A stretch of 64,000 bases of DNA from Pseudomonadales bacterium (GCA_020632255.1 JACKFX010000001.1:58734-122733), one strand, 5' to 3'. Positions 1,161 to 4,235 are shown, counted from the first letter of the stretch. Translations and numbers: made by a program. Notes: generated by a model from the sequence alone, not told the origin.

Positions 1161-1242
1161 GTTAGGCAAAATTCGCTTTACTCATTTTGACTAATGGCCG
1201 GAGCTTTTGTTATTCTCGCCCGCTTCGCGAGCTTCGCCTAAC
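1161..1242 (+). repeat. 82-bp imperfect palindrome GTTAGGC…GCCTAAC, copy 1 of 4 (inter-cassette element)
   Basis: Identical 82-mer recurs at 2059-2140, 3153-3234 and 4154-4235. Ends are the complementary 7-mers GTTAGGC/GCCTAAC. Internal palindromes: tggccggagc and cgcttcgcgagcttcgc. Confidence 0.8.
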
Positions 1243-1325
1243 AAAATGTTATGCGCCATAATAAAAAGCAAAAAATTACAAATTTTTTAATATTTCTGAT
1301 ATTTTTATTCAAATAATTTACACCT

Positions 1326-1892
1326 ATGACTGAGAAAGCTACATACCATGAAGAAGAGCCACCAAAGGCATCATTTGAAACTGGCCAAAAAATAGAATCC
1401 TTAACCGAGGAGGAGAGAAGAGTTCTTTCTGATTACCAAGCATCAGGTGGTAATGTAAACATATATTTAGGCAAAAAAGCTGCAAACCAAACTAGTCATA
1501 TAAAACCAGATTTAGTTGCACGATTCGACCGAGAAGTTGAAGTAATGGATTCTATTTTTCGTCGCATTGACGGCATAGCAAAACCACTAACAGTTCACAG
1601 AGGATTGAGTTTAGATACTCCAAGCCCAGATGAATTTACAAGTCCATGCTATGTAGGAACCACCTTAGATCCTGAAGTAAACGTAGATACAATCACAAGA
1701 AGAACAACCAGAAAAATAGTGCAAATTATCAGACTTCCTCAAGGTCAAAAAGGAATATATCTACCGGACTATATGCCAAATGATGCCTTTGGTGAACGAG
1801 AATTTTTACTTCCAAGAAATACAAAATTCCGCATCATAAAAAGAGAAACTATAAATAATATTCTTGTAGAAGCAGTAGAGATCATTGAATAA
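1326..1892 (+). CDS. mono-ADP-ribosyltransferase toxin-like protein (R-S-E class ART domain)
   Basis: Motifs read from translation: catalytic Arg context TVHRG, S/T-rich STS-like segment FTSPCYVGTT, and an EXE motif followed by the LLPR hallmark (GEREFLLPRNTKF). N-terminal LTEEE…YQASGGNVNIYLGKK resembles the ART NAD-binding N-lobe. Confidence 0.6.
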   Translation: MTEKATYHEEEPPKASFETGQKIESLTEEERRVLSDYQASGGNVNIYLGKKAANQTSHIKPDLVARFDREVEVMDSIFRRIDGIAKPLTVHRGLSLDTPSPDEFTSPCYVGTTLDPEVNVDTITRRTTRKIVQIIRLPQGQKGIYLPDYMPNDAFGEREFLLPRNTKFRIIKRETINNILVEAVEIIE

Positions 1893-2058
1893 AAATATCA
1901 GAAACATATTACCATTTTGAAAGAATGGTAATTGCTTTTCATTACAGCACATAACACGGCATATACGGCTACGGTTTGCTACGCAAACCTCCGCCCATAT
2001 TGCACGGGTGTAGCCTATCGGCTATTATACACCCGTGCAACATCGTATATACCGAAAC

Positions 2059-2140
2059 GTTAGGCAAAATTCGCTTTACTCATTTTGACTAATGGCCGGA
2101 GCTTTTGTTATTCTCGCCCGCTTCGCGAGCTTCGCCTAAC
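2059..2140 (+). repeat. 82-bp GTTAGGC…GCCTAAC palindrome, copy 2
   Basis: Identical to copy 1. Followed by the 38-bp imperfect palindrome gatatactatatccagcc-aa-ggctggacatcgtatatc and preceded by a direct-repeat copy acatcgtatata. Confidence 0.8.
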
Positions 2141-2214
2141 AAAATGATATACTATATCCAGCCAAGGCTGGACATCGTATATCATCCGGCCATTGTGTGA
2201 AATAAATTTTTCTT

Positions 2215-2733
2215 TTGATTATGACAAAAAGAAAGGCAATACCAGCAAAAATAAGGCTAAAAGTCCTACAGAGAGATAATTTTACATGCCAATCTTGTGG
2301 TAAATCGCCAGCATTATACCCAGAGTTGTTAGGAATTGATGCTTTCCCAAAACTAGAGATTGATCACTTTGATCCTCATTCTAAAGGGGGTAGCGATGAA
2401 ATTGACAATTTGCAAACTCTTTGCATCTTCTGCAATCGAGGAAAAGGTAATGACGAGACGCTTAATCGAACTATACAAGACAAAATCAGTACATTGCTAG
2501 ATACAATCAACCCTGAAATACGGAAAGTGATCAATTCAGATGGGAAGGCAAAAATTGTTGCAAATGATACTGATTACCAAGAACTGGTTAGATTAAATAG
2601 TCTATGTAATGCCTTTAGCATTCAAGTAATTCCAAATACAATTTTTGGCTATCAAGCTATGTATAATGCTGGCATATATACGATTAATGACAATCATGCA
2701 GGTAAAGTAAATTTTGTTTTAACTCCAATATAA
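2215..2733 (+). CDS. HNH endonuclease family protein
   Basis: CQSCGKS…EIDHFDPHSKGGSDEIDNLQTLCIFCNRGKGN gives zinc-finger cysteine pairs plus a D-H…N core. Start is TTG at 2215 or ATG at 2221. Confidence 0.7.
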   Translation: MIMTKRKAIPAKIRLKVLQRDNFTCQSCGKSPALYPELLGIDAFPKLEIDHFDPHSKGGSDEIDNLQTLCIFCNRGKGNDETLNRTIQDKISTLLDTINPEIRKVINSDGKAKIVANDTDYQELVRLNSLCNAFSIQVIPNTIFGYQAMYNAGIYTINDNHAGKVNFVLTPI

Positions 2734-2812
2734 AGAAGAAAAATTTACATCACACAACAGCGGGCTAGCCGGTTCGCTTGCTAAAAAAATTATTTTTTTA
2801 AATTATCAATAT

Positions 2813-3037
2813 ATGAAAAAATCAACCATTATAGTCATAATATCAATAGTTTTTGTAACTATAATATTTGGACTATATTTATTTAAGACAAATGCAAGAA
2901 ACACTACTGCGGATATATATCTAGAAAATTGCTTAAAATCAACACTGGCACTCGAAAATGCAGACGTGAACGACACTTTTTTAAGTTGTGAATGGGTGGT
3001 TAGTCAGTATAGAAAATATGGTGAATGGAAGTTTTAA
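2813..3037 (+). CDS. small single-pass membrane protein, unknown function
   Basis: N-terminal hydrophobic helix IIVIISIVFVTIIFGLYLF. No recognisable domain. Confidence 0.4.
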   Translation: MKKSTIIVIISIVFVTIIFGLYLFKTNARNTTADIYLENCLKSTLALENADVNDTFLSCEWVVSQYRKYGEWKF

Positions 3038-3152
3038 AAAATAATATATTTTTAACGCCCACTCACCCAAATTGCCTTCCTTGTGGACAGTGGTAGCCCT
3101 GCGGGCTATTATACCACTGCCACTGCGTCGGCAACTTCGGCCAGCCCGCGCC

Positions 3153-3234
3153 GTTAGGCAAAATTCGCTTTACTCATTTTGACTAATGGCCGGAGCTTTT
3201 GTTATTCTCGCCCGCTTCGCGAGCTTCGCCTAAC
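3153..3234 (+). repeat. 82-bp GTTAGGC…GCCTAAC palindrome, copy 3
   Basis: Identical 82-mer followed by the same 38-bp secondary palindrome. Confidence 0.8.
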
Positions 3235-3363
3235 AAAATGATATACTATATCCAGCCAAGGCTGGACATCGTATATCATCCGGCCATTATACGCCATAAT
3301 AAAAAGCCAATTTGATATAATTTTGGCAATTAATTAATAATTTAAAAATGGAGGTGAGATATT

Positions 3364-3954
3364 ATGACAGAAGTAAAGCAAGGACAACCAGTTGACCAGG
3401 AACAGTCAGTAACAAAAGATTACAGCATGAGGCTTGAGGATTTGAGAAGAAAGATAGTTCGAGGGAACATAGGTGGTGTAGATGTAGTAAGCGCAGTAAA
3501 TGTCAACGAGCTGGTAGAAAATATTAAACCGGGAATTGCTGCAATCGCTAAAGAGTTGCATGAAATTTATGATTTAGCCCCAGCTAATGTACCGTTATGG
3601 AATGGTAGTGATCAAATGATTAGACCTACTCCTCACATTTTTATGCAAAATGTTATTGTGCTAGATATTGCATCATCAATTAGAGACCAAATTGAAATAA
3701 GAGATCTTCAACAACTACCGCTAAGTCCCAAAGGAAGAGGTGCAATTCCCGGTTTAATGTTGCTGTTAGAATTCGACCGTATTAGAACTCAAGACGAAGA
3801 GGATAAGAAGTTTAATAGTACAACTTGGAGGGAACTGCTTGATTTGTATCATCGATCGCTACAGCCTGTTGGAGGACCAGAACAAACAATTGTTACGAAT
3901 CAAGACTTCAAAACAGCAGTTGAAATTACAGGATATGATCCTGTGCATAAATAA
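3364..3954 (+). CDS. hypothetical protein (196 aa), island cargo
   Basis: Good RBS ggaggtgag 7 nt upstream. No recognisable motifs. Confidence 0.5.
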   Translation: MTEVKQGQPVDQEQSVTKDYSMRLEDLRRKIVRGNIGGVDVVSAVNVNELVENIKPGIAAIAKELHEIYDLAPANVPLWNGSDQMIRPTPHIFMQNVIVLDIASSIRDQIEIRDLQQLPLSPKGRGAIPGLMLLLEFDRIRTQDEEDKKFNSTTWRELLDLYHRSLQPVGGPEQTIVTNQDFKTAVEITGYDPVHK

Positions 3955-4153
3955 TATCTCTTGAACATTGCCAAAATAAGAATAAGGATAAATTGGCTTT
4001 TTATTACGTCTCCGCTAACGCTTCGACCACACTGCGCTCTCCTCCCTTCGGTCGTCGGGGCGTATAACACAGCGTATGCGGTTCGGGGCTCGGCTTGCCC
4101 CTCTCCCATATTTTTGCTTCCGTTGGTCGCAAAAACATCGCATATACTGAAAC

Positions 4154-4235
4154 GTTAGGCAAAATTCGCTTTACTCATTTTGACTAATGGCCGGAGCTTT
4201 TGTTATTCTCGCCCGCTTCGCGAGCTTCGCCTAAC
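4154..4235 (+). repeat. 82-bp GTTAGGC…GCCTAAC palindrome, copy 4
   Basis: Identical 82-mer followed by the 38-bp secondary palindrome (one substitution). Confidence 0.8.

Follow-up and report, generated by a model that had tools for sequence, protein, structure and literature searches.

A probable 133-nt gene-less cassette underlies the 82-bp repeat

We analyzed an 82-nucleotide (nt) repeat in a 64,000-nt stretch of DNA recorded as that of a Pseudomonadales bacterium (GCA_020632255.1 JACKFX010000001.1:58734-122733), referred to below as the window. The 82-mer is probably the first three-fifths of a 133-nt cassette that carries no gene, here called X, and part of an integron-like gene-capture system in a bacterium of the candidate phyla radiation (CPR). 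The array lies beside an IntI-like tyrosine recombinase and reads attI, truncated X (X_A), cassette 1, X, cassette 2, X, cassette 3, X, cassette 4. We consider it likely that X is a cassette of this recombinase platform and is moved by its integrase. Throughout, a slash within a sequence marks a crossover point.

As stated in a preliminary description made from the sequence alone, the 82-mer occurs in four identical copies (1161-1242, 2059-2140, 3153-3234, and 4154-4235), all on the plus strand with 0 mismatches and each upstream of an open reading frame (ORF). The description was also right that its terminal 7-mers, GTTAGGC and GCCTAAC, are integron-type core sites situated in a cassette array beside a tyrosine recombinase; they open an imperfect stem of 16 bp (GTTAGGCAAAATTCGC and GCGAGCTTCGCCTAAC). 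A search allowing up to 3 mismatches returned no fifth copy in the window, and 100 shuffles yielded 0 copies by chance. Within the 64 kb searched, the repeat is restricted to the cassette array.

The repeat extends beyond 82 nt. Copies 2 to 4 have 134 nt in common, from G to A (2059-2192, 3153-3286, and 4154-4287), made up of the 82-mer, AAA, a near-perfect hairpin of 42 nt (hairpin H; ATGATATAC...GTATATCAT), and CCGGCC-A. In all three, the shared sequence ends at a second crossover, CCGGCCA/TT. Without the crossover G (at 2059 in copy 2), the complete 133-nt cassettes occupy 2060-2192, 3154-3286, and 4155-4287 on the plus strand, the last with a single substitution in hairpin H. Copy 1, beside attI, is shorter by exactly 46 nt (ATATAC...CCGGCCA) and reads GCCTAACAAAATG/TTATGCG. 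This truncated copy, X_A (1162-1248, plus strand), comprises the rest of the 82-mer followed by AAAATG; it has neither hairpin H nor the L'2 box described below and ends in G/TT.

Both ends of X coincide with cassette crossovers

The left boundary of X was located through the attC sites of the gene cassettes. Across the arrays of related integrases, the attC consensus comprises R'' (yAACA), L'', a loop, L' (AACATCrnATATrCyG), a spacer (AAAC), and R' (G/TTA), and more than 50 attC-like sites were found there, nearly all on the cassette strand. Profile models for the two half-sites (R''-L'' and L'-R') were built from the relatives only and run over the whole window. Significant matches fell only inside the array, at 1943, 2746, 4061, and 5385 for R''-L'' and at 2039, 4133, and 5505 for L'-R'. 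The X at 3153 is preceded by a fourth L'-R' end (3131-3164), for which a match (E = 0.032) required a model that also took in sites from the window. Each of the four L'-R' ends closes at G/TT, and in three of them this G is the first base of an 82-mer. These three half-sites run into G/TTAGGC, while the last attC (5505-5533) ends in G/TTATAT and has no 82-mer after it. The opening 7-mer of the 82-mer is therefore the R' core belonging to the attC that precedes it.

The hairpins upstream of the 82-mers have the attributes of attC sites: R''-L'' and L'-R' half-sites that follow a cassette ORF, a single orientation, and a position beside an integrase. Their bottom strands fold with z = -6.1 (1945-2065), -1.3, and -3.5 (cassette 4). 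Their core sites look canonical. In the predicted folds, a one-sided bulge of 3 to 5 nt (the TTT of GTTTC) separates the R box from the L box, and in one of them (attC_B) the L box is predicted to be fully paired. Several attC loops also keep an inner hairpin (GGTGTAGCC...GGCTATTATACACC), both in the window (2004-2036 and 3096-3125) and in L021 and L015. Its bottom strand reads TATAAT, and it may act as a promoter (outward or antisense) or bind a protein.

The right boundary emerged from the gene cassettes themselves. When their starts were set at the TT after CCGGCCA (2193, 3287, and 4288) or, for cassette 1, at the TT after AAAATG (1249), each gene cassette proved complementary over 24 to 28 nt to the sequence ending at its own R''; across the family, such complementarity takes in the first 24 to 30 nt of a cassette. 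Cognate pairs of start and R'' arm scored 16 (cassette 1), 19 (cassette 2), and 20 (cassette 4), compared with 13 or less for non-cognate pairs; the start of cassette 3 matches 17/17 within an R'' arm displaced by an insertion of ∼50 nt. This cognate terminal complementarity indicates that gene cassettes begin right after the repeat and, hence, that a crossover also lies at CCGGCCA/TT. With crossovers on both of its sides, X is a separate unit without a gene. Its left end (G/TT) is of the kind seen at attC and attI, and its right end is CCGGCCA/TT, so that both ends of the 2060-2192 copy are crossover points. The long terminal stems that begin at 1249, 2193, and 4288 share a conserved 2x2 mismatch at positions 9 and 10 (AA in the 5' end versus CA in the R'' arm), which could be a strand-selection feature.

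X is built from recombination-site modules

Copy 2 illustrates the layout of X. It begins with S5' (GTTAGGCAAAAT, 2059-2070), followed by R''2 (ATTTTGACTAAT, 2082-2093), L''2 (GGCCGG, 2094-2099), R''1 (GCCTAAC, 2134-2140), hairpin H (2144-2185), and the 3' end, where L'2 (CCGGCC, 2186-2191) and A (2192) precede TT. X therefore carries two R'' heads for a single 3' end: R''2 with GGCCGG, and R''1 with hairpin H, each combined with CCGGCC-A/TT. Of the first 11 nt of X, 10 are complementary to R''2 (TTAGGCAAAAT with ATTTTGACTAA), and for R''1 the match between GTTAGGC and GCCTAAC is 7/7. An R'' complementary to the element's own first bases, as in a cassette, was likewise found in five other lineages.

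This layout accounts for the order of the 7-mers. A linear cassette runs from its R' remnant (TTAGGC...) to its own R'' (GCCTAAC), and for this reason the two core sites seem reversed. No gene separates the R' remnant of X from R''1; the 7-mers are only 68 nt apart and look like a palindrome.

In its linear form, X is predicted to fold as a three-way junction on either strand (z = -6.5 for the top and -6.9 for the bottom). When the bottom strand is permuted circularly, the predicted structure is a three-way junction of -37 kcal/mol that places the crossover within a helix of ∼18 bp.

Elements of the same plan in related arrays

Elements with the same plan and unrelated sequences occur in the arrays of related integrases, with two copies each in L086 and L062 and further examples in L027, L031, L022, and L099. 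Another relative, L026, has two identical copies of 240 nt, one of them adjoining attI. Covariation was assessed over six complete elements (window, L086, L062, L026, L027, and L031). The L''2/L'2 helix is paired 6/6 in every one of them despite the different sequences, compared with 1 to 5 pairs in non-cognate combinations. The last base of R''2 covaries with the crossover base (T with A four times, C with G twice), and the R''1 7-mer agrees with the element's own start in 5/6 cases. What is conserved is thus a fold assembled from recombination-site modules, for which reason we take X to be an integrase substrate.

A strict signature scan over 1.7 Mb, both strands included, recovered ten X-like elements, all located in arrays and on the cassette strand. 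Hits with G+C-rich L2 helices were confined to arrays; the scan also gave five A+T-rich matches resembling those from shuffled sequence, which occur about once per shuffled replicate.

Many relatives have arrays without X, including the ten-cassette array of L091 and those of several of the closest relatives; a role of X as an obligatory part of the platform was rejected on this basis. Sequence searches did not extend its range. Searched exactly, the 22 nt that follow the crossover G gave 0 matches in Joint Genome Institute (JGI) metagenome contigs and viral contigs, blastn of a 137-nt unit (2059-2195) gave no match in plasmids, and blastn-short against 84 related loci returned same-species contigs only. 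The spread of X outside this species is therefore not mappable by sequence.

An IntI-like recombinase without the IntI-specific domain

The presumed cassette integrase is a tyrosine recombinase of 270 amino acids (aa), both IntI-like and XerA-like, encoded on the minus strand (234-1046; matches to TIGR02249, XerA, and Pfam Phage_integrase). It scored 218 bits against the TIGR02249 integron integrase model, in two stretches and below the cutoff of 265, and about equally (215 bits) against the archaeal XerA model. The best match among solved structures was VchIntIA (2A3V; E = 8e-44), followed by XerA (4A8E; E = 2e-42). The 2A3V alignment leaps from query residues 195/198 to chain residues 201/245, leaving a gap at about residues 202-244. 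By this alignment and the subthreshold TIGR02249 score, the IntI-specific additional domain near patch III (∼43 residues) is absent. What the preliminary description termed an island integrase is IntI-like, then, minus the domain that defines IntI.

Work by MacDonald et al. in 2006 reportedly showed that the IntI-specific insertion contacts extrahelical bases of attC. A passage in PMC9668308 cites Messier and Roy (2001) for this contact. A one-sided bulge in place of single extrahelical L-box bases, as predicted for the attC sites described above, would fit a recombinase without the domain.

The recombinase belongs to a family of more than 7,500 homologues. Most of the 120 best are 270 to 271 aa long (a few range from 256 to 324 aa) and 72 to 83% identical to it, and the named carriers among these 120 are Moran-, Portnoy-, Gracili-, and Shapirobacteria, the "Patescibacteria group," and candidate division WWE3. 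Remoter relatives were found in DPANN archaea.

Between the recombinase gene and the array lies attI (1047-1161, plus strand), which has two direct TCGTATAA boxes (1105-1114 and 1146-1155) followed by ...AATGAG/TT. Its crossover reads ...TGAG/TTAGGC, and the G at 1161 opens the first 82-mer. Both this layout and the ∼115-nt distance to the integrase start recur in most of about 30 relatives. Their pattern consists of two direct TTCGTATAA-like boxes, in the form ...TTCGTATAA...TTCGCATAAnnAnGAG/TTnnnnnAAAT, with the crossover at ...GAG/TT. The platform thus combines an attI beside the integrase with a strain-variable array of attC cassettes. We do not file it as a canonical integron because the recombinase lacks the additional domain.

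The platform lies next to the 3' part of a tRNA-Leu(TAG) gene (1-77, plus strand; Rfam tRNA match at 1-76), a chromosomal landmark that also stands ahead of the integrase in a sibling genome, L172. The integrase and the array lie between the two copies of a perfect direct repeat of 64 nt (166-229 and 5712-5775, plus strand), which closes with the sequence of the tRNA-Leu 3' end, CCTCTCGTCGGCAC, also present at 64-77. In the sibling genome, the integrase comes straight after the tRNA, and the 64-nt repeat is missing. The bracketing repeat and its absence from L172 suggest that the whole platform is mobile or that an additional insertion or duplication took place.

Gene cassettes of the array

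Of the five plus-strand ORFs that follow the recombinase, two have products of unknown function; the others encode an ADP-ribosyltransferase-like protein, an HNH endonuclease, and a 74-aa membrane peptide. All four gene cassettes are oriented on the plus strand. Cassette 1 (1249-2059) contains the ADP-ribosyltransferase-like ORF (1326-1892; Pfam ADPrib_exo_Tox), and its attC consists of an extended R'' (1932-1955) and an L'-R' end (2039-2065), with half-site matches at 1943-1971 and 2039-2070. Cassette 2 (2193-3153) contains the HNH endonuclease ORF (2215/2221-2733; Pfam HNH). Its attC is split into R''-L'' (2734-2775) and L'-R' (3131-3159), with half-site matches at 2746-2762 and 3131-3164, and the variable loop between them encloses the membrane-peptide ORF (2813-3037). 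Cassette 2 was recovered as one unitig flanked by X in 6 samples.

Cassette 3 (3287-4154) contains an ORF of unknown function (3364-3954). Its R'' arm is in two pieces (3990-4006 and 4057-4068), separated by the ∼50-nt interruption (4007-4056), which holds a further core-like motif, CGCTAAC. Both pieces match the 5' end of the cassette, 3990-4006 at 17/17 positions and also 4061-4068. The L'-R' end is at 4133-4160, and half-site matches are at 4061-4084 and 4133-4165. Cassette 4 (4288-5527), also with an ORF of unknown function (4368-5342), has an attC with its R'' arm at 5371-5397 and L'-R' at 5505-5533 (half-site matches at 5385-5413 and 5505-5538), and no X follows it.

Variation between close relatives

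Comparison with close relatives revealed both presence and absence of X. The sibling genome L172 (GCA_020632265.1) is 98% identical in the integrase region and occupies the same tRNA-Leu locus, with other cassettes and no X; only the first 18 nt of the 82-mer (TTAGGCAAAATTCGCTT) follow its attI. The reverse combination is found in L171 (GCA_020427845.1), where the integrase gene is 70 to 85% identical and the segment comprising attI, X_A, cassette 1 with its attC, and the start of the next X is 100% identical to the window. The same truncated X_A thus adjoins attI in L171 and in the window. Between L171 (1921-3757) and the window (245-2082), there is a sharp break in identity near the integrase start codon (window ∼1065-1100). 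From the aligned sequences, this break implies that diverged platforms, situated at different chromosomal loci, recently exchanged attI and cassettes.

Each junction of the array was also seen in independent assemblies or read sets: attI with X in L001, L002, and L004; X_A with cassette 1 and X in L171; X with cassette 2 and X in L181; X with cassette 3 and X in L169/L170; and X with cassette 4 and the array end in L175. Samples in which the array is present are SRR28385526, SRR28385528, SRR26387399, SRR14234118, SRR12358676, and ERZ28655329. The alternation of X with gene cassettes is therefore not an assembly artifact, whereas the relative order of cassettes 2 to 4 could be one. In three sets of Logan contigs that cover cassette 4 (L176, L179, and L180), the region upstream of the ORF is joined at differing points to the same foreign sequence, CTTATTTAGTCGCTAATCTTCACTAGACCC. 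These joins are probably adapter or chimera artifacts.

The cassettes of related integrases (L085, L086, L087/L088, L182, and L183) include restriction-modification, OLD/TOPRIM, NACHT, Fic, and helicase genes. Judging by this content, the arrays in these CPR genomes appear to be mostly stores of defense genes.

Proposed origin of the alternating array

The identical copies of X, its presence or absence among relatives, and its confinement to the array fit, at the sequence level, a non-autonomous element that is excised and reinserted. In the proposed mechanism, the integrase would excise X as a small single-stranded circle in which the first bases, TTAGGCAAAAT, pair with R''2 or R''1. The circle could then reinsert at attI or at the G/TT of any attC, and copies would pile up behind attI and behind the attC sites of the cassettes. 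Adjacent X-X tandems would be lost again, through the same reaction or through slippage, and X would remain wherever a cassette separates two copies; such loss of X-X pairs is the step that we infer to have produced the alternation. X is most likely a selfish or neutral cassette consisting only of an attC and, in addition, possibly a supplier of promoters to genes downstream.

The mechanism predicts recognizable products. An X circle or an X-X tandem would show the junction CATCCGGCCA/TTAGGCAAAAT or CATCCGGCCA/TTAGGCAAAATTCG, and excision of X, joining the attC of one cassette straight to the next gene cassette, would read ACCGAAACG/TTGTGTGAAATAAA and analogues thereof.

Several observations weigh against this reading. 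Neither an X circle nor an X-less junction was observed as a product of excision or insertion, and the mobility of X is accordingly proposed from its boundaries and distribution. In the window, the family half-site models give no match at X's own site, whose assignment therefore rests on complementarity and covariation. The crossover base of X is A, compared with the canonical G, and its best predicted fold has no unpaired central spacer; recombination at this site may be poor or may proceed differently. Nor does the model uniquely predict that X strictly alternates with cassettes, that none follows the last attC, or that the copy beside attI is truncated. Finally, with a recombinase devoid of the IntI-specific domain, classical single-stranded recombination of attC would be an extrapolation by analogy to IntI.

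A bolder proposal is that X-type elements form a dedicated class of "double-headed," attC-only cassettes that control array dynamics in a large unrecognized integron-like lineage of CPR (possibly also DPANN) organisms, with integrases that lack the IntI domain and attC sites that lack extrahelical L-box bases. We consider this unlikely at present. Under it, X might serve, for example, as a portable landing pad or as an insulator that ties up the upstream attC's R' within the S hairpin.

Alternative explanations

The alternative that survives best sees in X a cassette that supplies a promoter or 5' leader and is retained before each gene cassette because the attC hairpins isolate cassettes transcriptionally; selection for expression, instead of selfish spread, would then maintain it. 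Each copy of X does contain a sense-strand TTGACT-18 nt-TATTCT with an upstream TG, located 150 to 250 nt before the next ORF, and these promoter-like sites are the only ones in the array with an extended -10. There is also precedent, since most gene-less cassettes of Vibrio superintegrons show sense-strand promoter activity (10.1101/2023.11.21.568050), as do ORF-less cassettes from the oral metagenome (PMC6557892). However, promoter-like matches in the region are at chance level (23 versus 19.6 +/- 4.7 expected), and the X-like elements of L086, L026, and L062 have no such sense-strand motif. Across lineages, it is the helix architecture of X that is conserved, with no conserved sequence block. 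Promoters of CPR bacteria may depart from the sigma-70 consensus, and in the Vibrio study in silico promoter prediction disagrees with measured activity (10.1101/2023.11.21.568050). On balance, we regard a primary role in expression as possible, if rather unlikely.

More doubtful is the idea that X is the fixed end of a two-part mobile unit (X plus cassette or cassette plus X) or that the 82-mer is part of attI, with a second crossover at GCCTAACAAAATG/TT (1236-1250). The strict alternation of X and cassettes speaks for this idea, as does the joint inheritance of X_A, cassette 1, and X in L171. The copy at attI has the G/TT end of an attI junction, in contrast to the A/TT of internal copies; moreover, GCCTAAC-AAAAT-GTTATGC is an inverted pair that resembles a double-stranded core site. 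These points are countered by L172, which has the same attI and none of the 82-mer beyond its first 18 nt, by relatives that capture cassettes directly at the conserved ...GAG/TT, and by L086, where the first cassette follows attI with no X between them. The terminal complementarity of each gene cassette also closes on itself without X.

The preliminary description had also raised a miniature inverted-repeat transposable element (MITE), and a generic MITE or repetitive extragenic palindrome that landed in palindromic attC targets would indeed be short, non-coding, strongly structured, present in multiple identical copies, and bounded by inverted termini. This explanation fails on target-site duplication and on dispersal. 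The flanking direct repeats "catcgtatata," cited as a sign of a MITE, are clear around copy 2 only and are no target-site duplication; they are made up of the upstream attC's L' box together with the L' arm from the hairpin of X itself. No consistent target-site duplication was seen, no copy lies outside the array in the 64 kb, none was found in JGI metagenome contigs, viral contigs, or plasmids, and no transposase is present. In addition, both boundaries coincide to the nucleotide with integron-type crossovers, the orientation is always that of the cassettes, and the element is absent from the sibling L172 array. We consider a MITE origin very improbable. Group II introns, IS1111-attC elements, and remnants of other insertion sequences were rejected as well, as there is neither a reverse transcriptase or transposase ORF nor an Rfam intron domain.

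It is equally improbable that X encodes a small structured RNA or a micropeptide. Its strong top-strand fold and a 15-codon ORF within the 82-mer (ATGGCC...GCCTAA, with ATG at position 34 and the TAA of GCCTAAC as the stop) might suggest as much. Yet no Rfam family was found in X at E <= 1 (a scan of 1-7000 gave the tRNA only), both strands fold equally, as expected for a site that acts at the DNA level, and the ORF lacks a ribosome-binding site and is unconserved among X-like elements.

Hardly credible, finally, is the leading idea of the preliminary description, a non-canonical, attC-like palindrome in which the 82-mer itself is the integrase target: the terminal core 7-mers and imperfect 16-bp stem speak for it, but, as that description had itself correctly noted, the order GTTAGGC...GCCTAAC is not that of a canonical attC (RYYYAAC as R'' 5' and GTTRRRY as R' 3') on either strand, the GTT ends point outward with the cleavage site distal to the partner box, the isolated 82-mer folds weakly (z = -1.4 and -2.2), and the attC hairpins sit upstream and use its GTTAGGC as their R'.

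Relation to known systems and implications

The closest known counterparts of X are the gene-less cassettes of Vibrionaceae superintegrons (Blanco et al., 10.1101/2023.11.21.568050) and of the oral metagenome (PMC6557892). Like X, these have no gene, are bounded by attC crossovers, share the orientation of gene cassettes, are interspersed in the array, and are able to influence their neighbors. In contrast, X is only 133 nt long and practically a bare recombination site, with two R''-L'' heads for one L'-R' end and an A/TT crossover; it is present in four copies that alternate with every gene cassette, and its promoter-like motif is not conserved. The Vibrio cholerae repeats (VCRs), which exemplify the homogeneous attC repeats of sedentary chromosomal integrons, resemble X in being near-identical repeats of ∼120 to 130 nt between cassettes, with GTTRRRY and RYYYAAC core sites. 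However, a VCR is each gene cassette's own attC, whereas X is an extra unit between cassettes that keep heterogeneous attC sites of their own.

The recombinase is structurally closest to IntI (VchIntIA, 2A3V) and XerA (4A8E), and as with IntI, its gene diverges from the array and has attI adjacent to it. Unlike IntI, it shows no ∼43-residue insertion around patch III. MITEs share with X a short, non-autonomous, structured, multicopy form with inverted termini and, presumably, movement in trans; they differ from it in target-site duplication, transposase, and dispersal, and the ends of X are crossovers of site-specific recombination. Archaeal integrons reported to date carry the IntI domain. 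In the open-access literature searched, we found no description of integrons in CPR/Patescibacteria, of an IntI without the additional domain, or of an X-type cassette.

If the proposed reading is correct, integron-type gene capture runs widely in the CPR with a short recombinase. Standard integron finders require the IntI-specific domain and probably would not call this recombinase an integrase, which could explain some of the arrays classed as "attC clusters lacking an integrase." The long terminal complementarity would make cassette boundaries readable to the nucleotide, and the arrays would be open to colonization by a cassette that consists only of a recombination site with a conserved two-headed fold. 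X would then offer a natural minimal substrate for studying how an integrase without the IntI domain recognizes folded DNA and a test case for whether gene-less cassettes are parasites or regulators of integrons. The restriction-modification and other defense cassettes of relatives would also give the system a bearing on defense-gene exchange among ultrasmall bacteria.

Other repeats in the window

Three further repeat families were observed in the window. A unit of 291 nt occurs three times at a spacing of ∼1.1 to 1.25 kb (15186-18896), and one of 45 nt is present six times (26909-31618). A 60-nt unit is found at 16297, 17384, 18634, 54577, 58083, and 59397, with some of these six copies near tRNA genes.

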